A program made the translations under genes and the position numbers. 64,000 nucleotides of DNA from an uncultured Halobacteriales archaeon (lineage in GTDB: Archaea > Thermoplasmatota > E2 > JACPAO01 > JAHFTW01): the NCBI GenBank assembly GCA_964643795.1, contig CAZXUC010000002.1, forward strand, positions 24,941-88,940. The letters are read 5' to 3'. This document shows positions 19,940 through 64,000 of this stretch, one piece after another; position 1 is the first letter of the stretch; the number at the start of each line of letters is the position of its first letter. Under the pieces are notes generated by a model, which was not told the origin of the DNA, searched no databases, and was given only the letters and a program-made list of their open reading frames with translations.

Positions 19940-19941
19940 GG

Positions 19942-22001: not shown

Positions 22002-22010
22002 GATATAAGC
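22002..22010 (-). promoter_or_regulatory. TATA-like box upstream of the 21957 regulator gene
   Basis: The minus strand reads CTTATATCA about 45-50 nt upstream of ATG 21957, in an otherwise GC-rich spacer. Confidence 0.3.
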
Positions 22011-22150
22011 GCCCTGCGCATTCCTTGGTGTTCAAGCGGAATGTTTCGAGCATCGCCGCGCCCCGGCGTAGGCTTTGGTCCGGTCGCCCACCACGTTATT
22101 GTCTGAGCTGACCGAGCCGGGAATCAATCGCCCGACAATCCATCCTCAAT

Positions 22151-22654
22151 TCACTCCGCTTTGCGGTCCGCCAGCAACCGTCTCAGAAGCCCCGGCAGCA
22201 GGCCCACGAACGCGCCCACCAAGACGACGGCCATCACGCGTACCGCGAGTCCCGCCGGAGCCAGGGTGTCCTGCACGACCACGGATTGCCGGTTGGCAAG
22301 GAGTTGGGGCAGCCACGCCGAAGCAGCGACCGCGCCTGCAGCGACTGCCACGATGAGGGTCTGAAGAGGCACATCTACTCGCGGGGTCCGTTGCGGCGGC
22401 ACGTGGAGTGCTATGATGAAGGCCATCACTCCGCTTGCTGCCGCCGTGAGGGCTGCCGGGGTCGGTGAGGGGCCCGCCGCTGCCAGCAGGCTGACCAGCG
22501 CAGCACCCCAGGCGATGCCGTCGCTCCACGGTCGAAGCCTGCCGGCGCGCGCAATCGCGGCGGCTAGGAAGCTGACGGCGCCTGCTGCAAGGACTGGGGG
22601 GAGGGGCGCGGGGCTGGACCATGCGACAAGGGCAATGGCGAGGGCGTGCAACAA
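22151..22654 (-). CDS. Small polytopic membrane protein, last gene of the giant operon
   Basis: 167 aa, Ala/Leu/Val-rich, with 4-5 predicted helices. The TTG start lies 11 nt after the DUF58 stop. No recognisable motif. Confidence 0.5.
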   Translation of the reverse strand: MLHALAIALVAWSSPAPLPPVLAAGAVSFLAAAIARAGRLRPWSDGIAWGAALVSLLAAAGPSPTPAALTAAASGVMAFIIALHVPPQRTPRVDVPLQTLIVAVAAGAVAASAWLPQLLANRQSVVVQDTLAPAGLAVRVMAVVLVGAFVGLLPGLLRRLLADRKAE

Positions 22655-22665
22655 GAGATTGAAGA

Positions 22666-23907: not shown

Positions 23908-23908
23908 G

Positions 23909-24952: not shown

Positions 24953-25015
24953 GACAAAATCACCTGCTCCTTTCCTGGAGAACCTGAATCAATCGGGACC
25001 CGCCGGGCGTGCACG

Positions 25016-46000: not shown

Positions 46001-49000
46001 CTGCCAGACCGGGTCCGTCCCGGGCGGCAGGGGCGGGGCGCCGACGCCTACGTCGGCAGGCGCCGGGATTGGACCGGCTGGCGCCACCTCCACGAGGGCG
46101 ACGCCACGGTCGCCGGTGTCGATCCAGTGCCGGAACTCGAGGGTGGGTCGCACGCCGTCCAGGGGGATGGGGCCGGGCAGTTGCAGGACGGCGTCCAAGC
46201 CAGGGGTCTTCCCCTGCAGGACGGCGTCCAAGCCGGGGGCCCTCCACGCCAGGTGGGCGAGTCCCGTGGACCCGCTGGCAGTCAAATCGCCGTCGTCGGG
46301 GCGCAATTCTACCTGGAAGTCGCTGCCGCCTAGGGTCACGTCACCGGCTTTCCATCGGATCTCTGCGACCGACCACTCGTCCCCGCGCGTCCCCTTCTCC
46401 CCGGACTCCAGGTCGAAGACAATCCATTGGCTCTTGTTGCGCTCGATGGGGAGCGTGAATGCGGTGCGGACCCACTCGTCGCTTTCAGGATACTCCACTT
46501 CGTGCAGGATGGTCCAATTGTTTTGGCCTCGGGCCGGTGGGTCCGTGGATTCCCCAACAGGCAGCGCCCGCATGCGGAGCACGCCCTCGCCGCCCCGATG
46601 GATGAGTTCCAGCTGCGTGTCCGCGGTCGCCGCGGTCCCGGGCAGGTCCTTCAGGTCGGTCAGTCTCGCCCGCACGACTGGGCTGACCGCCACGCCGTAC
46701 GACCGCTCCACCACCACGGACAGGGTTTGGCCCAGGAACACGCCCTCCCGTTCCTGGATGTCAAGCCGGGGCTGGAAGGAGCCCGCCCGGAAGTAGGTGT
46801 GCGTCAGATTGATCGATCCGCCGGTGGCCGAATCCAGCAGGCCGTCTGCGATGAGGTTGCGCTTCAGCGAGCCGTCGCCTGGGTCGAAGAACACGCTCTC
46901 CAGTTCACGTTCTCCGGCCTCCAGCTCGCCGAGGAAGGTGACCTTCAGAGGGGCGTGGCCCGCCGCGGGCTCGGCGCGGAACCCGGACAGCGCCGCCAGG
47001 TCGCCCGCGGAGACCGGCACCTCGATGCGGGACAGGTAGTCCAGGTGGTCCAGGTACACGTAGATCAGGCCGCTGCCGAAGCCGCTCAACTCCATGTAGA
47101 GCCGCTGGCTGTCCTTGAATTCGATGTCCCCGTCAGCGTTCGTCTGACCGAACGGGCAGTTACTCGGACACGGAGGGAAGGGAACGTCGACCTCCACCTT
47201 CTGCACGGCAGTGGTCCTGTCCAGGGGGATTAGGGTCGCCCCCGGAGTTGTTGAGCCGCGTAGGAAACCGATCTTAAAACTTGGCGCCAAAGTCCCTTGG
47301 GCCGCTGCGTTCAGGTCCCGCATGGTAGTGTTGCCTTCCTCCGCATCCCTGTCCGGCAACAGGCCCAGTTGCACGAACAGGACCACCCGCACGGCGTCCA
47401 CTGTGTCGGGGTCCCCGTCACCGATGCGGCTGCCTGGCTGTAGGGGCGGAGATTCAAAACGGGGAGTACTGGAAGTGCTATACAGACTCAGGACGGCTGG
47501 TTGCGCCCGCTCTTGAGTGAAGTCGGGATGCAAAACGTTGTTCTCCACGACAGAAGCAGCGACGGTTGGACGATCCCCGGCAAGCCGGGGAAGGTCCTCA
47601 CAGTCATCGGATAGATCCCCAACAAGCCCCGCCACCGTCTCGTCCTGCGCCCCCTGCTCGCACACTGCCCGCACATCCTCCACGGGCCCCTCGAAGGGAC
47701 GCAGGTAGAGCACCGAAGTCGGGGCGTTGAGGCTAAGGATGCCGTCTTCACCGACCGCCGCCTGGCTCCCAGATGAGCCGACGGGCAGTCCCCCGCCCTC
47801 GTCCGGGTCCTCTCCGCCCTGCTCGCCGGATGGCGGGGCCTCCGCGGTGAGACCGCAGCGCAGCACGCCCAGCATGCCCTCGAACTCAGTGACGCGACCA
47901 CAGTCGGGTCCATGGAACTCCCACAGGTTGCCGAAGTCTTCGGAAATCATGGGCGGCAGTGCGGCATCCACCAACACGCGATCCCCCTCTGCCAGGACGT
48001 CTCCCGCCGCGTCCTCGACCGCCAGCCTCAGAACGCCGCCGTTCAGGCTGCCGCCCCACCGGTACGAGATGGTGGTCTCCGCGCCGGGGACTCCGAGCGT
48101 GCCGGAGATGTCGCGCGAGACTTCCAACGTGACTTCGTCTTGGTCGGGTGTGAGTGTGCCCTCCGGCTTGAGCGTCTCATCGAGGAGGAGGGGGTGCAGG
48201 GCGGCTTCATCACCGGTGAGTTCGAGCTCCTGGGGCACGGCGGCCAGGTTCCGCAGCGTCACATACACATGGCCCGGCTGCCCGCGTTCGACGAAGAAGG
48301 GACGCAGGGACTCCCCCTCGGGCTTGAATTCGACGCCAGTCACTTCCCAGCCGGAACCGGTGCCGACCAGCACGTGGAACCGTTCCTGCGACTGGGTCGA
48401 GAAGGGCTCCACCATGGTGCCTTGGACACTATCCGTGGGAATCTCCTGCTGTGCTTGGATCCATGCGTCGATGGCGTACCGACCCGGGGCCGGGGTGGAC
48501 CCGACAAGGTCGTGGAACGAGGGGTTGGGGGAGAGGATGACGCGGGCCAGGGGTCCGACCCCGGCCACGGTGGCGCTCGACGTCGTCGCCGCCGATTCGT
48601 CCACGCCCAGGTGCAGCCTGGTCGATAGGGGTTCCTGGAATGTATTGTGGAGTGCAACGGCAGGTTGGAAGTCTCGGTCCGGAGCGACGACCGCGCTGTC
48701 ACCTGGCGTGGCGAGGCCAAGAATCTGCATACCGGGGGTCCCCAGGCCGTGCACCTCCAGGCCGGCAAGCAGCCACCCAAGTCCAGGGTGGGTGTCGGCT
48801 CCGGGGATGGCGCTCTCGGCGCTGGCGGTGACGAAGCGCAGGCGTACGATGTGGCCTGCGAAGGCGGTCAAGTTGAACACCGACTCCACGAGGCCACCGC
48901 TGTCGCCGCCGAAGCCTGCCCACGGACCCCGGCCCACGTCGAACTGGGAGGCCTCAATGATGCCCTGGTACCTGTGCGGTTCCTGAACCTCCCGCCCAGT

Positions 49001-50014: not shown

Positions 50015-53000
50015 GGTCTCATTCTCCTGGTGAGGAATGCGATGGCGATGGCGGCAAGGACGACCAGCGTCGGCACGCCGGGGATGCCGCGGTCGCCTCC
50101 ACGCTCCAGCATCGCGTCGTCATGGCCTGCCAAGCCCACGGCCAGGACGGTCGGACCGGGCAGGGTCTTGGTGGTGACGATGGCGTCCCCCAGTTCCACC
50201 ACGAAGCGATACGTGTAAGGGTCCTCGAAGGGCGTCGGGGACAAGGTGACGGTCGCGACGTAGAGTCGCCCCAAGTCCCCAAGCCGGGGGCCGTCCGGGG
50301 TGGCGGCGTGGCGTTGGCCGTTGACCTCAAGCCACACGGCGGACGGTTCGCCATACACGACGGCGGAGAACGCGAAGGGGTCCGTGCTGCGGCCCTGGCG
50401 CGGCTGCACGTCGGGGTCGCGCACCACCAGGCCTTGCGGTGCCGCGCCCTCCGCGCCATCGGTGACCGCGGCAGCAGGCGCGTCCTCCGGGCGGGGGATG
50501 GCGGGCGATGCGACGGGGGCCGCCAGGTTGCCGACGCGGTCGCGCAGTTGCACGAGGGTGTGCGTGCCATTAGTGTGGGCGGTGGGGATGGCGAACGTGC
50601 CGATGCCGCCGGTCGTCGCCCAGGGGGACCAGGAGTCCGGTGTGTGTGGGGACGCGAAGCGCACCGCGTCGACGCCCACGGGGTTTCCGCTGCCGTTCAA
50701 CCGGTCGACGGCGACCAGATGGAGGACGGGGTCGCCCTCGGTCGGGGCGCCGGCCCAGCGCATGCCCAGGACTTCTGGCGGGGTCCGGTCCAGCACCATG
50801 GAGAGCGTGGCTGTGGCGACGTTGCCAGCCAAGTCGCGGACCTCCACGTCGATCCAGTGCTGCCCCTCCGGCGCGCCGGAAGGGACCATCGCCTCGGTGG
50901 GGGCGTCCGCAAGCCAGGGAGACCACGGTCCCTCTGCGACGCGCATCCGGTAGGATTCCACGCCGGATGCCGGGTCCTGCGCGGTGACGAGGAGGGGGAC
51001 GCTGTCGTCGCGGGTGGCCGCGGGTTCGGTCGCGACGGCCGCGTCCACGGCGGGTGGGGTGCGGTCCACGCGGACCAAGAGGTCACGGGCCTCCTCGTTG
51101 GAGGGTGTCGCCCCGTCGCGGGCCGTGAATGCGACCTCGTGAACGCCGTCGCTGGACAGGGTGACGCGGTCTCCAGGTTGGCTGGCCGACTGGTCCCCAT
51201 GCCGAACCGCAAGGGTCACGGGGTTCGTGGCATCCTCTGCGGTCGCGCGGACGACCACCGTGCCGTTGTGCCAGCCATTGCGGGCCGCCGGACCCTCGAT
51301 GTGGGTCTGCAACAGGGGTCGCGTGTTGTCGATCTGAAGCGAGAAAGGCAATTCCAAGACCCTGGAACCGTCGTCCAGGGTGAGAACCAAGTCAGCGGGG
51401 CCGTCGGGGAGGGACCGGGTGTCCAGTTCCAGCGTGAACGGCACCGGGCCCTCGCAGGGTTCCAGGGCCTTGTGCATCGCGGGCAGGGCGACCCCGCCGC
51501 TCACAAGCAGCGTCACCGTGGCGGGCACGGCGGCGGGGCAATCTGCGATGGCGTGGACCGCCACGGGTCCGCTGACGGCATGGGTGGGGACGGCGAGCCC
51601 GCCGAGGCTCGACTCCAGGAGGGGGAGGGTCCGGACGGATTCCTCCCGGGTGACGACCCAACCGGCAGCGTCCACCACTTCGAGGATCAAGAGGTACTCC
51701 GTGTCTTGGACCAGGTCAAGGAACGTCACCACGTGGGTCTGGGGGCCTCCCTGCACGACGCCGGGGACCGGGTCGCCGTCTCCCTGGAGGACGCCCTGAA
51801 GCTCCACGTCCCGGCTAGATTCCACGTGCACGGTAATCGACTGGGCGCGCACCTGGATGCCCGGCTCCACAACGGGAGGGTGGGGGTGGAAGGGAATTTC
51901 GCGGGCATCACCGGCGGCGTTGCCGGCGGCGTCGAGTGCCTCCAGCCGCACAACCACGGTGTTGGCCGTGCTGGCCGGTGCCGTGAGGGTGCCCTCGTAC
52001 TCGTCATTCGTGCCGGTCAGGGGGACGGAATCGGAGTCCTCGAAGGCTGCGGTGACCTGGTGCACGCCGGCAGCACCCACATCGGTCACGGCGGCCGAGA
52101 CCAACACCTCGTCGCCGGGCTTGATGGCTTGTTGGCCATCGGGCAACTGGACGGTGGCCTGGAGGAAGACCGGTGCCTGCCGGTCCACCACGAACCGTGC
52201 CCCGGGGTAGGTGGCCAACTGGTTGCCAACGTAATCGCGGGCGAACACCTCGACGAAATACTCCCCCTCCGGAGGCGCGGCAGTGGCGTCCCACACCCAG
52301 TGGGTCTCGAGCCCATCCGGCCCAGCCCCCCAAGCAACGAGGTTGAGGGGCGCAACATCGTTGGGGGCCCGCAGGCGGACACTCAGTGTTTCCACATCGA
52401 TGCCGGCGCCGGGGCATTGGGTCGGGCACTCGCTGGGATTCTGGAGTGAATCGTCCAGGTCCATGGTGATTGCGATGGGGAAGGAATCCTGGTTCGTGGC
52501 AGCGCCGAGGACGCCTGAGACATCCGTGACGCGGGGTGCCTCGCCGTCAACGTGGACCGTGGCCAGTTCCTGCCAGTCGGACCACGCGGCCGTGCCCCCG
52601 TCAAGCCAACCCACTCGCCCCTGGACGTGGAGGATGCCGCTGAACGTGGCCTCCGGGCGCACATCCAACTTCCACTCCGTCAATCGGGCCCCTGGTTCGG
52701 CGACCTGGGCTGACAGAATGGCGTGCTGCGAACCGTCCCTGACCAGCTTGACCTCCCCGCCTTGGCCGTCGCGCAGCCGCAACTGCACGTCTTCGACTCC
52801 GGCGGGGCTGATCACAGTGCCCGCTGCGGGCAGGAGTGAGTTCGCAGGAACGTACATGCCACCGGAAAGCGCCACGACGCCCTTGATGGATGACAAGCCC
52901 ACATTGTTCTCAAGCACGACGACATCGGTCTGTGCCAGTTCCTGCCACTCGCCCACTGGACCATCGGGCCATTGGGTGCGGGCCCACAAGGTGTGCGCTC

Positions 53001-56000
53001 CGGCCACGCCGGCCGAGAACTCCCAGGTCGCCTGGGCGGTTGCACCAGCGTTTCCAGGCGTGGGGGCCCACAATGAGATTGGGGGCGCGGCGAAGCCCCC
53101 GTTGGGGTGGCCGCCGGGGGTGGGGGTGGTGGGGGTGAACGCATATTGGACGAGGGGTGGAGTGCGTGCCGCGAGGGGCTCGTGGGAAGTGAACAGGAAG
53201 GTCAGCTCGCCTGCCGCCGGGTCCGGCAATCCGGAGACTTCGAGGCTGGGGGGCCGCGCCAGGTCCGCCTGCACCATCTCCATGCTCCAGCCGCCAGGGC
53301 TGTTGGTGGCACGGGCGTACACGAACAGTTGCAAGCAGCCGGCCGGGTGCAGGGGCCCGTCGTCGAGGACTTCGTCCAAATCCAATGTGAGGGTCGCCTG
53401 CTGCCCCGCCGCAAGCATCCCGGAATCCACCCAGGTCGGGGGGGAGATTGGCTCCGCCAGACACTCGGACCCATCCCGCATTGTGGTGGTGGCGAAGACC
53501 ACGTACGTCACGTCCTGCAGAACCTCTTCGTTGCTGAGGGTGGCCTGCCAGTCGCCTCCAACCAACTGCCCGCTGGTTGCAGTGAGCTCGATGGAGGGGC
53601 CAAGCGATGCCGGAACCTCCTGCGGGGACCCGCAAAGGGCATCATCGTCGCACGCGGCGTCCTGATCATCGGGTCCAATCCAGATCGCCTGGGGGGTCTG
53701 CACTCCCTCGGGGCCTCCGGCCGAAGGCGGCGCGGAGCCGTGGGACTGCCCGCGTTCCCCCAACCGGAGTGCAGCGGGGCCACCGAGAACAAGGGCGGCG
53801 ATGGCGTCCTCGCTGTAGGCTTGGGAGTTGTCCGACGCCAACAGCAGACCCGCGCCGTCCCGATCGACAAGCATTCCGCGGCCGCTTCCCTGGGCGGCGC
53901 CTTGCAACCACCCGTTGCCATGGTAGGTGGCCGCACCGTCCAGGCGCAGGTGGAGGCCGAGGGAGGGGCCGAAGCGGGGGCCGGTATCGATGAATGCGCC
54001 AAGGGCGGAAATGTTGGGCATGCAGGGACGGGTTCCTGTTCCACCGTCCTCGTGGAGGCAGGGTTCTTGACTGATGTCGCGCAGGGGGTCGAACCCTGCC
54101 CCATTGCCCTCATTGCCCCGTTCCAGACCTGCCAGGCACCACGGGTAGGGCGGGTCAGCCCCACTTTCCGTGTCCATCCAGGCGATGAGCTGGCCCCGGT
54201 GCTCATCCACGGAGGGGCAATCCGCCGTGCGCGGCGCGTATTCCATCGATTCCAACCGCTCATGCGCTCCGTACCCCTGAGCTTGGTTGCCGGCGTGGAA
54301 CATGTCCGTGCCGCCGCTCGTGATGTGGAGGCCCACCGCGTCGATGGCGGCCCCCTGAACAAGGTCGGGGGCCCCGCCGGCCAGCGGGGCCCGTTTGGGG
54401 CTCAGCGAGTCGGGGCGCTCAAGCCACGCGTCCCGGGCGTCTGGCAAGCCGGACACGATGTCCGGGTGGGTGCTGGCGACGGGGTTGTAGCGGTCGTCGC
54501 CCCCGAGGTCCACGAGGACGCCGACGCCGAGCCGGGTGGCTGCGCCCTGGGCGTGGCCCGGGGCCACGTACAGGTCGTCGCCGGTGAGGTCCATGAGGAC
54601 TGCGGCGGTGCCGAAGTCTCCGTAGCCCTGCGTCCTCTGATTGAGGGAGAGGTAGTCGTCGTCGCCTAGGAAATCAACGACGATGGAGGGTCGCCCCGAG
54701 GGGCTGGGGCCCGCGATGGCGCCCGTGTACCTGTCGTTCCCGGCCGCGTCCACGATGCCCAGATAGGGACTGCCACTGTACCAAGTGCGCACGCCGAGGG
54801 GGTCAAGGGCGAGCCAGAGCACTGGTTCGTCCTCGGAGCGCAGGTCGAAGGCGCGTTCCACGCTGATGTCCGCCACATGGAAGGGGTCCGTTGGGAGGTT
54901 GCTGATGCCTTCGACGGTGGCGTTGATTTGGTACTCCCCCGGGTTGAGCCAAATATGGCTCTTCTCCCATTGCAGGGGCCAACCGCCGGAGACGTCATTG
55001 CAGGTGAAGGAACCGTCGTCCCAGTCGACGCACAAGCTGGCTGTCTCCCCCGCCGGGACCATCAAGGGTTCGTAGAGCCCCGCATTGTTCAGTCGCTGCA
55101 CGGCAACGGTGAACGGGTACTCTTCGCCGGCAGCAGCCAGGCTGGCGTGGCGGACCTGGCCGCGGGGATTGATGGTCGCCGTCATGATGAATGGGGGGAG
55201 GTCCAAGTCCCCGTCAATTGCGTCCGGGTCGGGTTGGATGTCCACCGTGAACGTGGTCGCGTTGAAGCCGCCGAACCGGTCCAGGACGCGGTACTCCACT
55301 TCCCGTTGTGCGGCGAAATCCCACTGCCCAATGGCGCCGGGCCCGAGGGCCCGGACGTGGTGGAAGACGACGTGGTCTGTGCGGATGGGCGGTTCTTCTT
55401 CTTCGTCCAGGTCGGGGCGCGGGTCGAAGCCGTGCGGGAGCACCTGGCGCACCACCAGGCCCCGCACATCCGGGAAGTCCGGCAGATTGACGACCAAGAT
55501 ATCGGGGTCGTTGGCGCTGGTGCTGGCGACTTGGAGTGTCCCGACGGGTTCCAGTGCGCCGCCCGGGCGCAGCATGGAGAGTTCGAACTGGGTCGTCGCG
55601 GCCCCCGTGGGGCGGTGAGCCGCCACCTCCAACTGGCGGACCTGCCGGGGTCCAGCGAAGTCCACGACCACCTGGATGGGGTCGTGAAGGAACTGGGACG
55701 TGTAGTGGAGGGCGAGGTGGGTCGCCGGTTCGCCGTCCAACAGGTTGCCCGGTTCGTGGAGCAGTTCCTTCTGGACGCCGCCGAGGCTGGAACCGATGGA
55801 AAGGGGCAGGGACGCGCGGCCACCGGAGGAGAGTGCTGCCCAGTCCACGGCGGTGGCGTTCCACGCGCGCAGGTCGTCGGGGGACCCGAACAGGATGACT
55901 GGGTCCAGGAGATCGTCGGCTGGTTCAAAAGGGACCTGGAAGGCGGCTGGTTGGCCCACCATGGGCGCCAGGTTCCCCCGGAGGTCACCGATGCGCGGGG

Positions 56001-59000
56001 GTTCGTTGTGGACGGTGACGTTGCCAGCGTGGCGGGTCTGGAGCAGTCCGCCCGGATCGTGGGCTTCCAGGGTGACGGGGAAGTCAAGTGAGGTCTGTCC
56101 GAGGGTGCCGTCCACCGGCACGTTGTCCCATGCAATCGTTGCGTGTTGTGTGACGTTGTCCGGGTCCGGATGCAGCCATCCCGTGCAGGAGAGCGGTGCA
56201 GCCGTTTCGATTGAGAAGCAGAGCCGCAGGGGATCGCCGTCGGGGTCCCGGGCGGAGAAGGACAGTTCGGCGGGCACTCCTGCCGGCACGGCCTCGGGCA
56301 AGGCCCAGTCAAGGACCTCGGGGGCCTGGTTGTCGCTGGGGTTGACGCGTAGGCCCGTCCCGTCCCCTGGACCGGTCCCGTTCGGCGCGGCGTTGTGCTC
56401 TCCCGCCGCGACGAACACGCCCACGCCCCCGTCAAAGCCCGTCCCGTGTGCCGGGGGGCCATCGACGAGGAACACGTTGCGGTCCGCGGCGGGGGGCGGG
56501 CTGCGCAGGGCGACGAGGGCTCCAAGTCCGCCCGCGAATCCCACGCCTTGGGCACTGTGCGGTGCCACGAAGAGGTCGTTGCCGCCGAGGTCGAAGAGGA
56601 GTCCCGTGCCAGTGTTGCCGAAGCCCTGGTTGAACGGCAGGTCGGAGACGTACGAATCGTCGCCGCGCACGTCCAAGTGGAAGGAGAGGAGGGGAATTCC
56701 GCCGGGGGCGGTGCTGTTGGCGGCACCGGCCAGGCCCTCGTGCAGGTCGTCGCCGCCCAAATCAAAGTGCAGAGCGGCGCGGTAGCCGGGACCGAAGTGG
56801 TCCTGCCCCCCGACCGTCAATAGCAGACCGTGCGGCGCGTCCAGGTACAAGTCGGCGCCCTCGAGGTCCAGCAGGACCCGGGGGGCCACCGGCAGGGGGG
56901 ATACGCCCGGGTCGTTCGGGTCCGCGCCCCACAGGCCCACGAACTGCTGCCACAGGGACTCCACGAGGTCCGGGACCATGTCACCGTCCCGGTCGGCCTC
57001 CAGATCCACGCCGGTCAGGGTGTTTGCCTGCTCCTGCCGCCACACCGCATCGTTGCGGGGCACGGGGCCATCATCCAGGCTGGTCTGCACATTACCGGGG
57101 CCCAGGTCGGGGGAGGGACCGGCCAAGTCCATGGACGGCGCCTGGTGGGGATTGTCGGGGTCGGCGGGGGTGTAGGTGTCCTGGCCGCCGATGTCGGCGA
57201 AGAACCCGAAGGAGACGCCGTGACCCTCCAGGAGGCCGTTGTACTGGTCGTTGCTGCTGCCCTGGCTGCTGGAGGGCTCCACGGACACCTGGACGCCCAC
57301 TCCCACCTCGAGGAGAGTGGCATTCACCAGGCCGTCGAGGAAGATGGCCGTGGGGTCGATTGGTTGTTGGATGCTAACGACGGGTGGGCCACCGTAGCCG
57401 CGGGACATCTCCCCGGCCGTGTAAGTGTCGTCACTGGGGCTGCCGGGGCCTGCCGCGTCGGCAAAGAAGGCAAGCGGACGCTGATGTTTTCCCGTAGAAG
57501 CCCGGTTGTCCTGTGTGCTCCCCTGGCTTTCTGCTCCTGCGGTGTACGCATCGTGGCTGACGGCGTCGCGCCCGGCCACGTTGACGAAGAACGCGACGCC
57601 CGCGGTGCCATGGCGCGGGCCAGGCCCCACATCTGCGCCAGCAGCGGCTTGGCTCGAGTCGCCCGATGTGAAGGAAGAGATGGCTTCGGAGCCTGAGCCC
57701 ACGAGGCGGACCAGGGCCGCGGAACCGTGCCGGATGGGTGAGCCCCCTTCAACGCCGTCGGGCGCAGGCCCCGGCAGGGTGGATGCCTGGCTGCGGTCTC
57801 CGGCATGGTACGTGGAATCGAGGATTCCGGAGCCGATTCTTTCCACCAGCACCGCCACGCCCCGGCGCAGGGCTTGGTCCGGGTCGCCCACCCCGTTGGT
57901 GTCGCTTAGGCCTTGGACCAGTACCAAACGGGTGTCCGGTCCCGCGTACGCCTGCGACTGGTCACCGGCCATGAACCGGTTGGTGGCCGTGGCATCGTCG
58001 CCCTGCCAATCCACCAGGACCGCGACGGGGGCGCGGCTGGCGACTCCCGTGGTGTCCGCAGCGCCGACGTCGTCGCGGTCCGGGCAGGCGGCGGCGTGGG
58101 CGCACGACTTGTCCTCGGCGTCGTAGGTGTCGCTTCCGTCCAGGTCGAAGAGGAGGCTGACCGGAGCGGCGGCGGTGTGGTCCGGGTTGTTGGCGTTGGG
58201 TCCTACCTGTGCCGGGAAGGGGGCGCTGGCGTGGCGGCCGATGTACTGGTCGTCGCCGCCAACGTCGATGAGCAGCATGGCGGCCTCTTCCTCTGTCCAC
58301 ACCGGATTGTGGCCGCACAGGTCGAGGGCAAGGTACCCCAGAACGCGGAGCTTTGCGGGGACGCCCTCTGGGCACTCAACTGCGGTGGTGGATTGGGTGG
58401 AGGACTGCTGGGGCGCGAACGCTTCGGGGATTGCCTCCGCGGCGGCCAAGAGCTCCTCCAGCGCTTTGGCGGCGCCGGCAAGGGCCTGTAGGTGTTCCTG
58501 TGACGAGACGAGGAGTTGGCCATCCGGGGAGGCCGGGGAGGGCAGGTCCCCGTCGTCGAGGGCCTCGGCCCAACGCGCCAATGCGTCCGCGGTGAAACCC
58601 TGCGGCGCGGGAGTGGACAGAACTTGTTGTTCGGCGCGGATGTAGCGGGCGACGGAATCCAGGACGCGAGCAGCTGCTTCCGCTTGCGGCGGCGTCAGCC
58701 ATGCCTGGATCCGCTTGGCCTCCGTGGCGGCGTAGGCTGCATCCCCTTCCATGGCACGGGCTAGGTCCGCCACCGCGTCAGGCAAGGATGGGGCAGGGCG
58801 TGCTGGGGGTTGGACGCCTAGGTCGGGCAAGGCGAGCCGGAGGGGGGGCCTTTCGGCGTCCGGGTCCGGCAGGCGGGGCAGGGGGGTCTGCTCAGCGCGC
58901 CAGGCGAGGCGGGCGTCGGCGGCCGCACCCCAAACCTCCAGGGTGGGGCTTGCGGCGTCGATGGCGTGGCCGAGTTGGACCAAGTGGTCCGAGTCCCCCG

Positions 59001-59853
59001 TCGGGCCCAGCGTGAAGGGCAGCAGGGCCTGGAGAATCACGTCCAACGCGGCAAGGCCCGCGTCGGGGGCGCCGGCGAGGCCGGCTGCGAGATCGAGGCG
59101 CTCAGCATCCGTGAGAAGGGCGAGGACCTGGACGCGTCCCGCCACGGCCAACGGCGTGGTGGGCCTGAGGCGGAGGGGGTCGCCGGCCTCGACGCCGAGG
59201 AAGTCGGCCAGCACGTCAGCCACGCGCAGGCGCTCGTCCAAGGCCTGGTGGCCGGCCACCAGGCCTTCCACCAGGAATCCGGTCTCCACGAGGATGCCGG
59301 CGGCCTGCAGGATGTGTGGTTGGTCGAGGCGCGCCAACACGGGGGCCAGGCGCTTCTCGGTCTTCGCGTCCAGGTCGTTGCCTTGGGCCTGCGCGTCGCG
59401 CAGGATGCCAAGTTGGTCTGAGGTGAGGTAGCGGGTGGCCATCTCCTGGTGCCAGTAGGCGCGGGCGAGACCCTCCAGCATAGCGCGCGCCACCTCCTCG
59501 TAGACGGGAGGCAGTTGGGGCAACCGGTCAAGGTCCTGGCGCAGGGATTCGGCGCCGGGCGACCCCGGGGAAGCTCCGGCTAGAAGCATCGACAGTTCCA
59601 GCATGGACAATTCATCCACGCGCCCCTCCACCCACGCGTCGGGGGCCCAGGTGGGGGGATGGGGCAGCCGGTCGTGGGCGGGGGATTCTCCGGGCCGGCT
59701 TGGCGTGCTCTCCGGGCCAGCGGGAGGCACAAGGAAGCCGGGAAGCTGCGGCATCGCCGCCGCAGGCAGCAGCACCGCAATGACCACCAGGAGGGCGACC
59801 GCCGAGGGTCGGCCGAATCTGGCCGTCCGAATGGGACGCTCCTTGCGAATCAT
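50011..59853 (-). CDS. Giant (3280 aa) secreted protein: N-terminal anchor, ~550-aa Ala/Leu-rich helical region, beta-solenoid-like GxDxY repeat region, Ig-like array, C-terminal TM+Arg anchor
   Basis: I preferred ATG 59853 (MIRKERPIRTARFGRPSAVALLVVIAVLLPAAA). Repeats include IDVGGDDQYIG, FDLGGNDLFVAPHSAQGVGFAGG, MDLTGDDLYVAPGHAQGAATRLG and VDLGGDDRYNP. Ig-like modules follow. The tail is GIPGVPTLVVLAAIAIAFLTRRMRP. Confidence 0.85.
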   Translation of the reverse strand: MIRKERPIRTARFGRPSAVALLVVIAVLLPAAAMPQLPGFLVPPAGPESTPSRPGESPAHDRLPHPPTWAPDAWVEGRVDELSMLELSMLLAGASPGSPGAESLRQDLDRLPQLPPVYEEVARAMLEGLARAYWHQEMATRYLTSDQLGILRDAQAQGNDLDAKTEKRLAPVLARLDQPHILQAAGILVETGFLVEGLVAGHQALDERLRVADVLADFLGVEAGDPLRLRPTTPLAVAGRVQVLALLTDAERLDLAAGLAGAPDAGLAALDVILQALLPFTLGPTGDSDHLVQLGHAIDAASPTLEVWGAAADARLAWRAEQTPLPRLPDPDAERPPLRLALPDLGVQPPARPAPSLPDAVADLARAMEGDAAYAATEAKRIQAWLTPPQAEAAARVLDSVARYIRAEQQVLSTPAPQGFTADALARWAEALDDGDLPSPASPDGQLLVSSQEHLQALAGAAKALEELLAAAEAIPEAFAPQQSSTQSTTAVECPEGVPAKLRVLGYLALDLCGHNPVWTEEEAAMLLIDVGGDDQYIGRHASAPFPAQVGPNANNPDHTAAAPVSLLFDLDGSDTYDAEDKSCAHAAACPDRDDVGAADTTGVASRAPVAVLVDWQGDDATATNRFMAGDQSQAYAGPDTRLVLVQGLSDTNGVGDPDQALRRGVAVLVERIGSGILDSTYHAGDRSQASTLPGPAPDGVEGGSPIRHGSAALVRLVGSGSEAISSFTSGDSSQAAAGADVGPGPRHGTAGVAFFVNVAGRDAVSHDAYTAGAESQGSTQDNRASTGKHQRPLAFFADAAGPGSPSDDTYTAGEMSRGYGGPPVVSIQQPIDPTAIFLDGLVNATLLEVGVGVQVSVEPSSSQGSSNDQYNGLLEGHGVSFGFFADIGGQDTYTPADPDNPHQAPSMDLAGPSPDLGPGNVQTSLDDGPVPRNDAVWRQEQANTLTGVDLEADRDGDMVPDLVESLWQQFVGLWGADPNDPGVSPLPVAPRVLLDLEGADLYLDAPHGLLLTVGGQDHFGPGYRAALHFDLGGDDLHEGLAGAANSTAPGGIPLLSFHLDVRGDDSYVSDLPFNQGFGNTGTGLLFDLGGNDLFVAPHSAQGVGFAGGLGALVALRSPPPAADRNVFLVDGPPAHGTGFDGGVGVFVAAGEHNAAPNGTGPGDGTGLRVNPSDNQAPEVLDWALPEAVPAGVPAELSFSARDPDGDPLRLCFSIETAAPLSCTGWLHPDPDNVTQHATIAWDNVPVDGTLGQTSLDFPVTLEAHDPGGLLQTRHAGNVTVHNEPPRIGDLRGNLAPMVGQPAAFQVPFEPADDLLDPVILFGSPDDLRAWNATAVDWAALSSGGRASLPLSIGSSLGGVQKELLHEPGNLLDGEPATHLALHYTSQFLHDPIQVVVDFAGPRQVRQLEVAAHRPTGAATTQFELSMLRPGGALEPVGTLQVASTSANDPDILVVNLPDFPDVRGLVVRQVLPHGFDPRPDLDEEEEPPIRTDHVVFHHVRALGPGAIGQWDFAAQREVEYRVLDRFGGFNATTFTVDIQPDPDAIDGDLDLPPFIMTATINPRGQVRHASLAAAGEEYPFTVAVQRLNNAGLYEPLMVPAGETASLCVDWDDGSFTCNDVSGGWPLQWEKSHIWLNPGEYQINATVEGISNLPTDPFHVADISVERAFDLRSEDEPVLWLALDPLGVRTWYSGSPYLGIVDAAGNDRYTGAIAGPSPSGRPSIVVDFLGDDDYLSLNQRTQGYGDFGTAAVLMDLTGDDLYVAPGHAQGAATRLGVGVLVDLGGDDRYNPVASTHPDIVSGLPDARDAWLERPDSLSPKRAPLAGGAPDLVQGAAIDAVGLHITSGGTDMFHAGNQAQGYGAHERLESMEYAPRTADCPSVDEHRGQLIAWMDTESGADPPYPWCLAGLERGNEGNGAGFDPLRDISQEPCLHEDGGTGTRPCMPNISALGAFIDTGPRFGPSLGLHLRLDGAATYHGNGWLQGAAQGSGRGMLVDRDGAGLLLASDNSQAYSEDAIAALVLGGPAALRLGERGQSHGSAPPSAGGPEGVQTPQAIWIGPDDQDAACDDDALCGSPQEVPASLGPSIELTATSGQLVGGDWQATLSNEEVLQDVTYVVFATTTMRDGSECLAEPISPPTWVDSGMLAAGQQATLTLDLDEVLDDGPLHPAGCLQLFVYARATNSPGGWSMEMVQADLARPPSLEVSGLPDPAAGELTFLFTSHEPLAARTPPLVQYAFTPTTPTPGGHPNGGFAAPPISLWAPTPGNAGATAQATWEFSAGVAGAHTLWARTQWPDGPVGEWQELAQTDVVVLENNVGLSSIKGVVALSGGMYVPANSLLPAAGTVISPAGVEDVQLRLRDGQGGEVKLVRDGSQHAILSAQVAEPGARLTEWKLDVRPEATFSGILHVQGRVGWLDGGTAAWSDWQELATVHVDGEAPRVTDVSGVLGAATNQDSFPIAITMDLDDSLQNPSECPTQCPGAGIDVETLSVRLRAPNDVAPLNLVAWGAGPDGLETHWVWDATAAPPEGEYFVEVFARDYVGNQLATYPGARFVVDRQAPVFLQATVQLPDGQQAIKPGDEVLVSAAVTDVGAAGVHQVTAAFEDSDSVPLTGTNDEYEGTLTAPASTANTVVVRLEALDAAGNAAGDAREIPFHPHPPVVEPGIQVRAQSITVHVESSRDVELQGVLQGDGDPVPGVVQGGPQTHVVTFLDLVQDTEYLLILEVVDAAGWVVTREESVRTLPLLESSLGGLAVPTHAVSGPVAVHAIADCPAAVPATVTLLVSGGVALPAMHKALEPCEGPVPFTLELDTRSLPDGPADLVLTLDDGSRVLELPFSLQIDNTRPLLQTHIEGPAARNGWHNGTVVVRATAEDATNPVTLAVRHGDQSASQPGDRVTLSSDGVHEVAFTARDGATPSNEEARDLLVRVDRTPPAVDAAVATEPAATRDDSVPLLVTAQDPASGVESYRMRVAEGPWSPWLADAPTEAMVPSGAPEGQHWIDVEVRDLAGNVATATLSMVLDRTPPEVLGMRWAGAPTEGDPVLHLVAVDRLNGSGNPVGVDAVRFASPHTPDSWSPWATTGGIGTFAIPTAHTNGTHTLVQLRDRVGNLAAPVASPAIPRPEDAPAAAVTDGAEGAAPQGLVVRDPDVQPRQGRSTDPFAFSAVVYGEPSAVWLEVNGQRHAATPDGPRLGDLGRLYVATVTLSPTPFEDPYTYRFVVELGDAIVTTKTLPGPTVLAVGLAGHDDAMLERGGDRGIPGVPTLVVLAAIAIAFLTRRMRP

Positions 59854-60407
59854 CACCCACCCTTGCAATCCTTCGACTAACGGGAGGGCACTTGTCGATT
59901 TTGGGCCGAATCCGGAATCAACGAGAAGGCTGGCGGATTCGCGTTGGATGCGTACGGCAGCTCCTCGCAGCCCACCCACACATAAGCCTCCAGGGTTTGA
60001 CCATCAAGATTATGGGCGTCAACCGGAAACGTCGTCAGCCGTGCGCCAGACGGTTGGAAGCGAGGCAACGGGAGGCGCCGAAGTCCAGGGGCGCTGGCTG
60101 GCCGTTCAGGCGTACTTGTCGCGGTTCTCAAAGGGCGCTCGAAGTTACCGTGCGACTCCTGGCGGTTGCCTTGGTTCTGGCGATTGAATCGCCTTCTGTT
60201 GGGAGTCGGCTATGTCACGGCTACCCGCAAGGTGACGCCGCAGCCGAGCGTCGCTGCGGCCGCTAGCTCGAGAGTCTTCCGAACATCCTGCCCGGGCCTT
60301 GAAGACAATCTCCGACATCCTGCATGACAAGGGAAACCCGTATGATTCTGCAAGGCTCTTTGCAGCTCACAACGTCATTGGACTAATGGATGAACGGACG
60401 CGCTCCT

Positions 60408-60590
60408 TCATCGAGCGCATTCACTCACGTAGTAGCGCGTGTAGTGGGCGTCGCGTGCGCGGTTCACGAGTCCGGCGCCTGCTAGTCGGTTGATGTGCCA
60501 ATTGACGGTGCTCGCGGTAATCTCGAATTCCTCGGCGAGGTCGCATTGCGGGACGCCCGGACTGCGCAGGAGGTGGCGGGCGCGCGACGT
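60408..60590 (-). pseudogene. Orphan 3' fragment (60 codons) of a membrane-tethered wHTH regulator gene
   Basis: It reads (TAG)TSRARHLLRSPGVPQCDLAEEFEITASTVNWHINRLAGAGLVNRARDAHYTRYYVSECAR*. It is near-identical to the second wHTH of the 62491.. gene. An in-frame stop sits at 60591-60593, and no start codon is available. Confidence 0.75.
60427..60569. repeat. 143-bp direct repeat, left copy
   Basis: It aligns without gaps to 62558..62700, with about 137 of 143 positions identical by eye. Most differences are synonymous third-codon positions. Confidence 0.85.
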
Positions 60591-60596
60591 CTACGC

Positions 60597-61325
60597 CTAC
60601 TTGACAAGCGACAGAAACTCGTCCATTCGCGCCTTGGCGTCCTTCGGACTCAGTTTGCGGTAACGTTGGACTGCGTCGGGGTCCGCGGCGGCTGCGCTCA
60701 GCACATCGCCGAGGAACGGCAATCGCTTCAACTCCTTGCCCAGGAACGCGATTTCCCAGTCCGGCGCGGTTGGATTAGAATCGAGGATGGCGAGGATATC
60801 GGAGCGGTCCTTGTTGAGTTTGCCGCGCTCCCAATCCGGGTCACGGCTGTCGTTTGCGGCGAGTCGGCCCGCTCGGTCCCAGGCGGCCTTCGCTTTGTAG
60901 AGCATGAGGAGGGACCGCGTCGGAACCAAAAGAGGGTTGCCAGCGATGTCGCGTTCGACATGGTGCTTTCCCGCGAGGTCGAAGTTCAGTTCCTCCTTGC
61001 GGCCGTAAAAGGGGAAGTGTTCGTCGTAGCCCGCGACGTCGACAATCATGGCGCCGATACCGGTGAAGTTTTTGTTCGCGCCGCTCCACCCGTGGACGTG
61101 CTCGACCATTTTCTCGTAGTGTCGTTCGTCGCGAAGCCACTGTAAGAGGCGTCCACGGCGCTTGGACCCCAGGACGAGGTCGACGTCCCGGCTTTTCTCG
61201 TAGGGATTGTAGGCATGAACCGCCCAACCTCCCACAAGGATGGACGGCCGGCCGTCGTGCTTGCCTGCGAGGTACTTCGCGATGGCGGCAAGCTCGTCCT
61301 GGCTGACATCCTGAATGCTAGACAC
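60597..61325 (-). CDS. Nucleotidyltransferase-fold protein (AbiEii/DUF2204/MNT-like), putative toxin/effector
   Basis: GTG 61325 overlaps the upstream stop (GTGTCTAG). ILVGGWAVHAYNPYEKSRDVDLVL matches the GG...S/T.D.D NTase motif, with a further acidic residue at IVDVAGYD. The C-terminal helical part is LLMLYKAKAAWDRAGR...KDRSDILAIL. Confidence 0.6.
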   Translation of the reverse strand: MSSIQDVSQDELAAIAKYLAGKHDGRPSILVGGWAVHAYNPYEKSRDVDLVLGSKRRGRLLQWLRDERHYEKMVEHVHGWSGANKNFTGIGAMIVDVAGYDEHFPFYGRKEELNFDLAGKHHVERDIAGNPLLVPTRSLLMLYKAKAAWDRAGRLAANDSRDPDWERGKLNKDRSDILAILDSNPTAPDWEIAFLGKELKRLPFLGDVLSAAAADPDAVQRYRKLSPKDAKARMDEFLSLVK

Positions 61326-62310
61326 GGAGCACCTCTGCAAGCTTGATGGCGATGTCGCGGGCGGAGTATCCAAAGCCGGCAACGTCCAGCAGAGCTTGCT
61401 CGGCGCTGACGGTTGGCAGTCCATCGATGACGCTCGAAGTCGACGCAACGTCTCGATTGTCGATTCGGTAAACTACGAGGTCGATGCCGCCCTTGCGGCC
61501 GCTGAATACCTGCTTGACGTTGGCGGGGTCCTTGGCATACACCTGAATTTCGTCGCTGCGGTCAGAGTATCCTGAACGAGCGCTGGCCGCAGTTAGGCCG
61601 CATACCCAAATGCCGGGCCTTGGCGCGCTTGCCGCCAGTCGGGTCCACTGCGTACCCATCGTCGACATCAGGTCGGTCCACGACTTGATGCCCGTTGGAA
61701 TTCGTTCAGCTTCGAGCCGACCCATTGGCCTTTCAGACGCGACTTGGTCCAGCAGAAGGCCGAGCGCGTTGGACGTCAGATCGCCCTTGGCTCCAATGAT
61801 TCCACGCTGGCGCAACTGCTGGACGACAGTTGAGGTCCAGCCGATGCTTGTTCCGGCGGCCTTCGAAAGAATCTGGACGCCGGGGAAATGTCCGAGACGC
61901 AGCAGCGCCGTGCATACCCGCCAAGCGCTTTGGGTCGTAATTCCCCGCGGCACGATGTTGCTCGGGGGCAAAAATTCCAAGGGGGCTTCGAAGGTCTCGA
62001 CCTTCGCGTTTTGCGCCAACTGTCGGATGAAACCTGGCACGGAGGCGGCCACGAGCACGGGAACCACCTCCCTCCGGCCGATATCTACTCCTTCGAGTTG
62101 CTTGGCGACGTGCCGAAGGAAGCTAAGCCTGGCTACGTCGTCGAGTCGCGGGACGCCGGCTTTGACCTCAATGAGGAACACCTTAGCTGCGGTTTCGATG
62201 ACAAGGTCGGCGACCGCTTGGCGGTGTAGGCGGATGTTCCGCCTAATCTTGGCATCGTGGATGCCCAGGCGCTGGGCCAACCAAGCGGCAAGCTCCTCCA
62301 TGGGTTTCAC
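61318..62310 (-). CDS. DNA-binding partner protein: PD-(D/E)xK-like N-terminal domain + winged helix + C-terminal domain (putative antitoxin/regulator)
   Basis: VADLVIETAAKVFLIEVKAG fits a D...E.K nuclease-fold motif. ILSKAAGTSIGWTSTVVQQLRQRGIIGAKG is HTH-like. The start is GTG 62310, or alternatively ATG 62301. It is translationally coupled to the NTase gene. Confidence 0.55.
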   Translation of the reverse strand: MKPMEELAAWLAQRLGIHDAKIRRNIRLHRQAVADLVIETAAKVFLIEVKAGVPRLDDVARLSFLRHVAKQLEGVDIGRREVVPVLVAASVPGFIRQLAQNAKVETFEAPLEFLPPSNIVPRGITTQSAWRVCTALLRLGHFPGVQILSKAAGTSIGWTSTVVQQLRQRGIIGAKGDLTSNALGLLLDQVASERPMGRLEAERIPTGIKSWTDLMSTMGTQWTRLAASAPRPGIWVCGLTAASARSGYSDRSDEIQVYAKDPANVKQVFSGRKGGIDLVVYRIDNRDVASTSSVIDGLPTVSAEQALLDVAGFGYSARDIAIKLAEVLRV

Positions 62311-62385
62311 TGAAAGCAGGGTAGTTTAAAAATTTCACTGAAACAGTTTGCTGAAACAATCGCTGTTAGCGGCTTTCACTGAAAC
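62305..62385 (-). promoter_or_regulatory. AT-rich promoter with TATA-like box and 3-4 copies of the palindrome TTTCA-N-TGAAA (candidate operator array)
   Basis: tttcactgaaag (62305-62316), tttcactgaaac (62333-62344), tttgctgaaac (62347-62357) and tttcactgaaac (62374-62385). The tttaaaaattt box at ~62325-62335 lies ~20 nt upstream of the start codon. Confidence 0.5.
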
Positions 62386-62490
62386 GCGTGAGACCCATCC
62401 GTCCATGCAATTTGGAGCAGGATTGTTTCCTTGCTCGGCAAGACCTTCACGTCTACATCGCCTGGGCCGTGGAGCGAGGATTTGGCAGAC

Positions 62491-63999
62491 CTACGCCGTC
62501 ACAGCAATGGCATACCGCTGTTGTTCATCGGCGGGCAACTGGCTCCACCCTTCGCTGACGTAGTAGCGCGTGTAGTGGGCGTCGCGTGCGCGGTTGACGA
62601 GTCCGGCGCCTGCTAGTCGGTTGATGTGCCAGTTGACGGTGCTCGCGGTGATCTCGAATTCCTCGGCGAGGTCGCATTGCGGGACGCCTGGGTTGCGCAG
62701 AATGTGCTTCGCGATTGCGGCCGTCGTCTCGTTGCGTAGGGCCGAGACGGCGACCTTTTTGTGGCCGGAGTAGGTTCCGGCTTGGCGGTCGAAGAAGCGC
62801 AAATAGCGGCCGTCCTTGACGGAGGTGATGAAGCCGTTGCGTTCAAGGACGCGCAGGTGGTAGTTCAGCGTCGAGGCGCCGAAGCCGACTTGGTCTGCGA
62901 GTTGATGGAAACTTGCGCCGGGGAAGGCCTTGACGCGTTCGTAGACTTCCTGTCGTCCTGGATGCTCGAGGACTTCCTGGCCCGAGACCCGCGCGTAGCC
63001 TGCGACGAGGCCGCTTGCGCCGCCGATGAGGCCACCCTTTTGCGCGACGAGCCAGCCGGCGAGGGCGAGTAGGAGGCCGCCGAGACCCGCTGCAGCGACG
63101 GCCGCCTTGGTCCAATCGTACTTGGCCGCGACGGCGCCGTAGGAGACTGCCGTGAAGTCGCCGGACCCGGTGACTTCGCTTGTGCCGCGACCCGTCGGAG
63201 AGTCGGCGAGGTTGAGCGTGAAGAGCCCCGCGAGGTCGAGGTCTTCACCGGTGAGGAGGTGGACGACGGATTCGTCGCCATCTTGGATTGTGACCGTGCC
63301 CTTGGCTCCGGCCAGGTGGGCGATGCCTTGGACGTCAATGGTCTGGGAACTTGCGTACAGCGAACCGACTTGGTCCGCGAACTGGACTTCCATGCGGCCG
63401 GCGGTCGCTTCGATCAGGAGGTACTCTTGGATGTATTCCTCGTGCGTCCCCGGGCCGGTCCATTCGCGGCTCAAGGGGTGGTAAACGCCGCCCGACTTGG
63501 TCTCCACGCGGAAGTGCGCTAGGATCTGCTCCAGGCTGCCATCCGATGCGACGTAGGTCAACACTGCGTTGTTGATGAAGAGGTTGAAGGGGCCGTCCAT
63601 GGCCGCGCGTCCATCGTCGGCACGGGCCTCGAAGAGCCCGGCAGGTATCCTGTGGGAGAACCGGTCGGCGTCCTTCGGTGGGTTGAGGTGGATGCTGAGC
63701 GCCGTCTCGAGGTCGTAGTCGATGAATTTTGAGTAGTCGATGGCGCCCACGAGGAGGTCGCCGTGCTGGGAACCTGATTCCATGCGCACTGCGCCGTCGT
63801 AGGCAAGGAGTTGGAACCCGGCTTGCCGCTCATCGAGCGCCAGCAGGGCGTCTTGCAGGGGGAGTTCGATGCGCTCGATGCGGTCGTCCCAACGCACGTC
63901 GGCGCTCGGGTCTTGCATGTTGACGAAGCCGTAGGCCCGGTGCAGGACGCGAATGGCTTTGCCTTCGACGTTGTGCAGGACAATCGCGGTACCACCAGC
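62491..63999 (-). CDS. Membrane-tethered double winged-helix regulator (paralogue of 20683..21957); 5' end probably outside the window
   Basis: The reading frame stays open from 63918 to the window edge (...AGGTAIVLHNVEGKAIRVLHRAYGFVNMQDPSADVR...). After an extracellular domain comes the TM AAVAAAGLGGLLLALAGWLV. wHTH 1 is VYERVKAFPGASFHQLADQVGFGASTLNYHLRVLERNGFI and wHTH 2 is IAKHILRNPGVPQCDLAEEFEITASTVNWHINRLAGAGLV. Confidence 0.7.
   Translation of the reverse strand, partial: AGGTAIVLHNVEGKAIRVLHRAYGFVNMQDPSADVRWDDRIERIELPLQDALLALDERQAGFQLLAYDGAVRMESGSQHGDLLVGAIDYSKFIDYDLETALSIHLNPPKDADRFSHRIPAGLFEARADDGRAAMDGPFNLFINNAVLTYVASDGSLEQILAHFRVETKSGGVYHPLSREWTGPGTHEEYIQEYLLIEATAGRMEVQFADQVGSLYASSQTIDVQGIAHLAGAKGTVTIQDGDESVVHLLTGEDLDLAGLFTLNLADSPTGRGTSEVTGSGDFTAVSYGAVAAKYDWTKAAVAAAGLGGLLLALAGWLVAQKGGLIGGASGLVAGYARVSGQEVLEHPGRQEVYERVKAFPGASFHQLADQVGFGASTLNYHLRVLERNGFITSVKDGRYLRFFDRQAGTYSGHKKVAVSALRNETTAAIAKHILRNPGVPQCDLAEEFEITASTVNWHINRLAGAGLVNRARDAHYTRYYVSEGWSQLPADEQQRYAIAVTA
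62558..62700. repeat. 143-bp direct repeat, right copy (inside the intact regulator gene)
   Basis: See 60427..60569. This copy encodes residues LRNPGVPQC...YTRYYV of the intact gene. Confidence 0.85.
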
Positions 64000-64000
64000 G

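Follow-up and report, generated by a model that had tools for sequence, protein, structure and literature searches.

A direct repeat around a two-gene cassette in an uncultured archaeon may pair a regulator gene with its own relic

In a 64,000-nucleotide stretch of DNA from an uncultured Halobacteriales archaeon (contig CAZXUC010000002.1, positions 24,941 to 88,940; below, the window), a cassette of two genes, here termed A and B, lies between the two copies of a 143-bp direct repeat, in front of an operon of giant genes. One copy of the repeat is part of an intact regulator gene and the other belongs to a short fragment next to gene B; the cassette genes, the fragment and the regulator gene are all on the minus strand (Table 1). 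An earlier note, made from the sequence alone, had offered two explanations: that an element had integrated into the 3′ end of the regulator gene and had brought its own copy of that end, in the manner of attL and attR sites, or that a further paralogue of the regulator had been truncated by insertion of the cassette. We reanalysed the repeats, the cassette and the surrounding locus, and we conclude that the repeats are probably a gene and the relic of a second copy, and not the ends of an integrated element.

The two copies, 60427-60569 and 62558-62700, align without gaps and are identical at 137 of 143 positions (95.8%); in an extended alignment (60420-60575 with 62551-62706), 146 of 156 positions agree. 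The perfect-match stretches between them are 38, 35, 17 and 38 nt long, and a search of the window found no third copy. Similarity drops at 60570, 27 nt from the TAG stop codon (60597-60599) of gene B, which encodes a predicted nucleotidyltransferase (NTase). The left copy belongs to a frame of 60 codons (60408-60590) that has no start codon and ends in its own TGA, while the right copy lies inside the regulator’s open reading frame (ORF). On the gap-free match, the start-less frame and the drop at 60570, the recomputed alignment agrees with the earlier note, including its count by eye of about 137 matches. Its description of the repeat as the 3′ end of the regulator gene, however, has to be given up. 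The repeat is an internal segment, which codes for the second winged helix-turn-helix (wHTH) domain of the regulator (residues 477-530 of 549), and the intact gene runs on past it for 19 codons and a stop codon.

The end of the gene could be located by comparison within the family. The full regulator (P0015, 549 residues) matches the part encoded in the window at 100%, and consists of an extracytoplasmic domain, a transmembrane (TM) segment and two C-terminal wHTH domains, with Pfam matches to HTH_HVO_0163_N, HTH_24, HTH_20 and MarR; it has more than 80 homologues in Thermoplasmatota. (The list of ORFs gives it 475 residues from a start at 63918, whereas the annotated protein is longer and begins beyond the window.) Its C-terminal tail carries a motif, [GA]WxxLPxxE (GWSQLP..E in the intact gene), that is found in all full-length relatives, down to 41% identity and in more than 80 members. 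Since this motif is kept in every full-length relative, the tail of the intact gene is its native one. The fragment ends instead in YVSE-CAR and a stop codon (SECAR-stop), and because it thus lacks the native tail, it is truncated at its 3′ side too. A naturally short C-terminus could be ruled out for the fragment, as all full-length family members have 16-36 residues after the RYY motif. The fragment is therefore cut on both its 5′ and its 3′ side, and is an internal piece of a gene rather than a duplicated gene end. No displaced tail or remnant of one occurs elsewhere in the window, the spacer between the fragment and the first giant gene (59854-60407) has no Pfam, Rfam or repeat match, and the small ORFs in 59877-60493 have no Pfam match.

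The position of the tail bears directly on the first explanation of the earlier note. In a classical integration, a circular element carrying the distal part of the regulator gene would have entered the chromosome through an integrase or a Campbell-type crossover, and its recombinase and the native tail would later have been deleted. Direct repeats of 143-156 bp that flank foreign genes are what such an event would leave, and the sharp boundary of identity at 60560-60570 could be the limit of the crossover. However, under integration the native tail should sit on the displaced left copy, whereas it is found on the intact gene (unless an extra deletion is assumed). Together with the internal position of the repeat, the lack of a recombinase and the lack of repeats at other loci of the cassette (see below), this makes the attL/attR explanation improbable in our view.

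The pattern of differences between the two copies is informative about their past. In a core of 47 codons (60420-60560, 141 nt), 135 of 141 positions are identical and the six differences are all synonymous changes at third positions, a pattern with a probability of ~0.003 under neutral drift of the fragment from the split onwards. (Within the 143 nt delimited by the earlier note, four of the differences are silent and a single Asn/Ser codon accounts for the other two; our codon-by-codon comparison agrees with its count of four out of six, and its view that the copies diverged as coding sequence is supported.) The seven codons on the 5′ side of the core are very different: only 13 of 21 nucleotides are identical (8 differ), and some codons have two or three changes. 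Their peptides, ARHLLRS in the fragment and AKHILRN in the regulator, are both recognizable next to the family consensus ARHIRDH, so that the flank reads as helix 1 of the family. The identity of 62% in this flank is at the level seen against orthologues of 55-59% protein identity (0.48-0.62 in the flank), whereas the core identity of 0.957 between the copies contrasts with 0.70-0.81 for the orthologues of the regulator. A Fisher test on near-identical counts gave p ~1e-5 for the heterogeneity of flank and core. Further upstream, similarity to the regulator ends: the stop codon of gene B, TAG, is followed by 15 nt and then by the fragment.

The left copy is thus a mosaic, with a flank like that of a distant homologue next to a core that hardly differs from the adjacent regulator gene. 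The divergence of the core arose while both copies were under purifying selection. Because the core differs at synonymous sites only and the flank has diverged as in distant orthologues, we read the fragment as the mosaic relic of a second, once-functional gene of the family. The synonymous-only divergence and the diverged but homologous flank also exclude a fresh duplication or a target-site duplication. As a separate observation, the relic is in frame with gene B, parted from it only by TAG-GCG-TAG (60582-60602). A read-through fusion of B and the fragment is unlikely, since the homologues of B all have 241-250 residues and TAG is an ordinary stop codon (5 of 16 genes).

As the source is metagenome-assembled, a mis-join had to be considered, and the earlier note had itself raised the possibility of a chimeric artefact. 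Run SRR6868923 yielded a Logan unitig of 2060 bp (L004) that matches 62587..60528 with 100% identity. It passes without a branch from the tail of the regulator across A and B to the left copy, and ends only inside the shared 38-nt runs. Because this independent unitig covers both inner junctions, a simple chimeric join at these inner junctions is unlikely. A different artefact would be that two strain alleles of the regulator segment had been placed in tandem, and a divergence of ~4% that is synonymous only does resemble that of co-occurring strain alleles. However, the left copy has unique, non-regulator sequence on both sides, the unitig is unbranched up to the left copy and breaks solely in the shared 38-mers, and the single-nucleotide polymorphisms that distinguish the copies are 18-39 nt apart and could be linked by typical short reads. 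We therefore regard such an artefact as very improbable.

Table 1. Features of the locus (positions within the window; strand relative to the window)
Feature	Position	Strand	Remarks
tRNA-His(GTG)	19940..20015	-	synteny anchor; ~150 nt past the regulator stop in orthologous loci
Lineage-specific stretch	20016..62490	-	42,475 nt, from regulator to tRNA-His
Spacer, relic to first giant gene	59854..60407		GC 0.60; giant gene starts at 59853 or 59979
Non-homologous end of relic frame	60408..60419	-	Cys-Ala-Arg-TGA; 3′ truncation point
Left repeat copy	60420..60581	-	54-codon relic of the second wHTH domain; flank 60561-60581 62% identical, core 60420-60560 95.7% identical
Cassette/relic junction	60582..60596	-	GCG TAG ACG TCG CGC; no homology to regulator (codon table)
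Gene B	60597..61325	-	242 aa; nucleotidyltransferase fold; GTG start
Gene A	61318..62301	-	327 aa; NucS-like PD-(D/E)xK domain, central predicted wHTH, poorly modelled C-terminal domain
Cassette promoter	62305..62384	-	TATA box and three 11-bp palindromes
Native C-terminal tail of regulator	62491..62550	-	GWSQLPADEQQRYAIAVTA and TAG; 19 codons past the repeat; absent from the fragment
Right repeat copy	62551..62712	-	segment coding for the second wHTH domain (aa 477-530) inside the intact regulator ORF
Regulator gene, 3′ 1.5 kb	62491..64000	-	stop codon 62491-62493; N-terminus past the window end

Gene-conversion tracts are short, nearly identical stretches with sharp borders within homologues that are otherwise diverged. 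The left copy resembles such a case in its near-identical tract with sharp borders and in being a truncated copy without a start codon. It differs in that only one border keeps a homologous flank, of seven codons, and the rest of the paralogue is gone; the conversion step, like the order of events given here, is something we infer. The reading that we favour, with about half of our confidence, is that the left copy is the relic of a tandem second gene of the family, whose core was homogenised and which was cut by insertion of the cassette and by a rearrangement at its 3′ side. This second gene could have been a paralogue or have come with foreign DNA. It would once have followed the intact regulator on its downstream side, in the same orientation, and may have been the upstream regulator of an incoming block that held the giant operon. 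The core of its second wHTH domain, the most conserved part, would have been homogenised with the neighbouring gene by homologous recombination or gene conversion, and both copies would then have evolved for a time as working genes. The A-B cassette would later have been inserted by illegitimate (non-site-specific) recombination, with removal of approximately the first 470 codons of the second copy, and a separate rearrangement would have removed its conserved C-terminal tail. The repeats would then be a by-product of this history and not attachment sites. The truncated paralogue that the earlier note had proposed as its second explanation is thus the better fit of the two, although it needs a conversion tract and a second truncation, at the 3′ side, in addition.

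Several points weigh against the tandem-gene relic. It calls for three separate events, namely a conversion, an insertion accompanied by a deletion, and removal of the tail, and the homologous 5′ flank amounts to seven codons, so the mosaic rests on few sites. Across genome contigs, metagenome contigs and a search of 5.8 billion proteins, nothing closer than 59% protein identity was found, and those collections yielded no intact second copy and no empty site. In addition, no tandem second copy is present at the related loci L001, L002, L003, L007 and L017-L019. The orthologous loci lack the cassette, and their regulators, the closest being at most 59% identical, are too distant to define the junctions.

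Alternatively, the relic could have arrived together with the cassette: a single piece of DNA from a related archaeon, with A-B beside part of the donor’s regulator, could have entered downstream of the host regulator at this variable locus, homology-facilitated illegitimate recombination being one possible route. That the cores are nearly identical would then reflect a closely related donor allele or a later conversion. Such a co-arrival would fit the synonymous-only divergence, as expected of two functional alleles of related lineages, and also the close abutment of the relic on the stop codon of gene B, with 15 nt between. However, in a donor allele the divergence would not be expected to jump from 4% across the core to 38% in the neighbouring 21 nt, and the missing tail would still call for a loss of its own. 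We consider co-arrival unlikely, though clearly more probable than classical integration.

The genes of the cassette are rare, and their predicted products suggest what it might do. Among 5.8 billion proteins, only four relatives of gene A were found. The first 110 residues of its product are modelled well and resemble the nuclease domain of NucS/EndoMS as well as other PD-(D/E)xK folds (E 2e-4); the residues D32, E45 and K47 are invariant, leaving the D...ExK motif intact, and two homologues of gene A match the Pfam families NucS_C and PDDEXK_9. In residues 124-175, three helices and a wing are modelled with a predicted local distance difference test score (pLDDT) of 73-80, and Pfam matches to helix-turn-helix families are weak there (E ~0.2). 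The GTG start codon of gene B overlaps the TAG of gene A by 8 nt. The model of the B protein (pLDDT 92) has as its structural neighbours in Foldseek the NTase-like protein 5uvd (E 1e-6), MenT1 (8an4), LnuA and ANT(2''); MenT1 of Mycobacterium tuberculosis is the closest match that is a named toxin (E 2e-6, TM-score 0.5-0.6). The motif GGWAV...DxD (G35 G36 ... D50 x D52) is invariant. Relatives of gene B numbered ten in a word-indexed search and 323 representative clusters in a profile search among 1.84 billion. Gene B, nine homologues and ten remote relatives match no Pfam family beyond marginal hits to NTP_transf_5 and Aminoglyc_resit, and PADLOC and NCBIfam have no match for A or B. One of the remote relatives, P0185 (502 residues, from the representative library), has an N-terminal wHTH domain (HTH_24) fused to the NTase, and because of this fusion a functional link between a DNA-binding partner and the NTase is supported.

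Neither A nor B contains a recombinase domain. The earlier note’s statement that no integrase is left thus holds for A, B, the small ORFs and, by tblastn, the window as a whole, and the missing recombinase, or any remnant of it in the window, speaks against classical integration. IMG/VR has no match for the cassette, so a viral origin is unsupported by that search. In composition the cassette is only mildly distinct from its flanks: the GC content at third codon positions (GC3) is 0.71-0.77 in A and B, while the regulator has 0.80 and the giant genes have 0.83-0.86. That the relic has codons ending in T or G where the host gene has C is in line with the lower GC3 of the cassette, and is a point in favour of co-arrival.

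The promoter region of the cassette helps to define its upstream edge. A TATA box, TTTTTAAA, lies at 62325-62332, ~27 nt upstream of the ATG of gene A, and is surrounded by three copies of the palindrome TTTCAGTGAAA (62305-15, 62333-43 and 62374-84), which are the only such sites in the window, as compared with 0.22 expected. With this promoter and the 8-nt overlap, the earlier description of two coupled genes, unrelated to their neighbours and with an AT-rich promoter of their own, proved accurate. In five loci of the cassette, three palindromes occur at approximately -13, -43 and -85; the positions are kept, but the sequence covaries, being TTTCAGTGAAA here, GTTCAGTGAAC in L005, GTTCACTGAAC in L006 and L016, and TATCACTGATA in L008. 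The cassette may therefore be a self-repressed module, with A as the candidate autorepressor, to judge from these predicted operators. Since the promoter array is conserved across loci, the upstream edge of the cassette must lie between 62386 and 62490, past the stop codon of the regulator, and because the edge follows that stop codon, the tail of the regulator lies outside the mobile unit. This again argues against integration into the regulator gene. (A scan for promoter and terminator consensus sequences was uninformative, as the consensus is of the bacterial type and the host is archaeal.)

A and B occur together in nine loci, with differing neighbours. In L008-L010 (JGI Ga0504915/Ga0504917 and Logan SRR32234022), a pair that is 26-39% identical lies inside an operon resembling bacteriophage exclusion (BREX) systems, with a PglX-type methylase on one side and SNF2 and PglZ genes on the other. 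In L005, A-B adjoin genes for SMODS, SLATT, a Schlafen-like helicase and MazG, in an island of the type of the cyclic-oligonucleotide-based anti-phage signalling system (CBASS). In the remaining loci the pair stands among housekeeping genes. A-B is thus a portable, autonomous module, and these neighbourhoods at other loci suggest a role in defence. In L005, L006, L008, L011, L013 and L016 the cassette has no long direct repeats at its sides, contrary to what integration through such repeats would predict, and no other cassette locus adjoins a gene of this regulator family, which is a further point against co-arrival. The possibility that the wHTH fragment is a conserved third gene of the cassette was ruled out, since the downstream neighbours of B differ from locus to locus.

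We compared the cassette with known two-gene systems. In AbiE, AbiEi acts on inverted repeats to repress its own operon (PMC3985639, PMC7319586), and in MenAT, the MenT toxins extend the acceptor ends of tRNAs (PMC7450476, PMC10435456). Like both, A-B consists of two overlapping genes in one operon, and its homologues are embedded in BREX-like and SMODS/SLATT neighbourhoods. The predicted wHTH of gene A and the repeated palindromes in its own promoter recall AbiEi autorepression, and the NTase fold of gene B, with a catalytic G[GS]...DxD motif and MenT1 as the best match to a named toxin, recalls MenAT. On the other hand, neither the pair nor its remote members have a sequence match to DUF1814/AbiEii (PF08843) or to the AbiEi models of Pfam, gene A carries an extra N-terminal NucS-like PD-(D/E)xK domain with the D...ExK motif intact, and there are three single 11-bp palindromes where AbiE has paired 23-bp inverted repeats. 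The host is, moreover, archaeal. Judged from these models, A-B resembles AbiE and MenAT in fold and organisation but not in sequence family. By analogy, a toxin-antitoxin or defence function may be proposed, and the cassette may be a new variant of the AbiE/MenAT kind. As a rare two-gene family without a Pfam model, with an added nuclease domain and a covarying operator, it is a candidate archaeal defence module.

A more specific proposal would be that A-B represents an uncharacterised family of archaeal abortive-infection or toxin-antitoxin systems, in which a partner with both an active PD-(D/E)xK nuclease and the autorepressor wHTH controls a MenT-like NTase toxin, and that the duplicate of the second wHTH domain is the footprint of a homology-guided capture of such cassettes beside regulator genes of one family, or of their exchange between these genes. 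We think this combination doubtful, and about as improbable as classical integration. Independently of that proposal, the perfect runs of 35-38 nt within the 143 bp could permit homologous deletion between the repeats, which would remove the cassette and the conserved tail of the regulator and would leave a regulator ending in SECAR-stop. On the more specific proposal, losing the cassette in this way would also damage the regulator that stands in front of the giant operon.

The wider locus is a variable spot next to a tRNA gene. In the orthologous loci, whose regulators are 55-59% identical to the one studied here, the order of genes is aldo-keto reductase, ribulose-phosphate epimerase, regulator, tRNA-His(GTG) and an 80-residue membrane protein, the gene for which lies at 19363-19593 in the window. 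The distance from the regulator stop codon to tRNA-His is 152-157 nt in L018 and L002, which carry no cargo there. In L017 a TerC gene separates the two. In L001 (JBBSVQ010000014.1) they are separated by a 3.7-kb integrative element (11578-15291), which encodes a tyrosine integrase on the minus strand (14043-15140) and has the 12-nt repeat ATGGCCCGGGTA at its ends; the 5′ end of tRNA-His forms part of this repeat. Adjacency of regulator and tRNA-His is probably ancestral for the lineage; this is not certain, because L019, with a regulator that is 50% identical, keeps the upstream synteny but has other genes downstream. In the window, the corresponding interval is 42.5 kb long and contains the cassette, the relic, four giant genes (26038-59979), DUF4350 and DUF58 genes and a paralogue of the regulator. 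That paralogue (20683-22053, minus strand), also of the TM and wHTH type and 31% identical over the C-terminal half, stands directly upstream of tRNA-His, the place of the main regulator in the relatives.

The activity of an integrative element at this locus in a relative is a point in favour of integration, and a documented insertion spot would likewise suit co-arrival. The situation here is similar to that in L001 in that foreign genes lie between direct repeats near the tRNA-His hot spot. However, where L001 has a tyrosine integrase and a 12-nt repeat with the 5′ end of the tRNA, no integrase is present here, the repeat of 143-156 bp comes from within a coding sequence and its copies differ by 4-6%, and the displaced copy lacks the end of the gene. 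A search with the L001 integrase (tblastn) found no match and no recombinase remnant in the window, and no partial copy of tRNA-His above chance level occurs elsewhere in it. That the element of L001 uses the tRNA and not the regulator gene is a further point against classical integration here.

On the reading favoured here, the repeat reflects no more than the usual wear of a genome at a variable hot spot. It also carries a caution: foreign genes may be flanked by direct repeats that overlap a host gene, and such repeats need not be att sites. Locating the conserved end of the gene suffices here to tell a relic from an integration scar. As in the hot spots known to hold defence cassettes, the core genes are conserved (the regulator on one side, tRNA-His and the 80-residue protein on the other) and the cargo varies; the difference is that the cargo here is mostly an operon for giant proteins. 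The small accessory island that the earlier note had placed upstream of the giant operon is real as an accessory cassette, but it is merely the proximal 2 kb of the 42.5-kb lineage-specific stretch. The whole stretch, including the giant operon, is absent from the orthologous loci, and the giant operon may itself be the cargo of an island; no att site or integrase for this block was found in the window.

Two minor features were also seen. A dispersed repeat of ~20-36 nt occurs in both orientations at 19722-19757, 18041-18118, 17980-17997 and 11966-12075, with one copy just downstream of tRNA-His. ARAGORN also calls a tRNA-like sequence at 19774-19865 (minus strand), 75 nt downstream of tRNA-His; with its 2-nt anticodon this call is probably spurious, although it could be a degraded tRNA or an att remnant.

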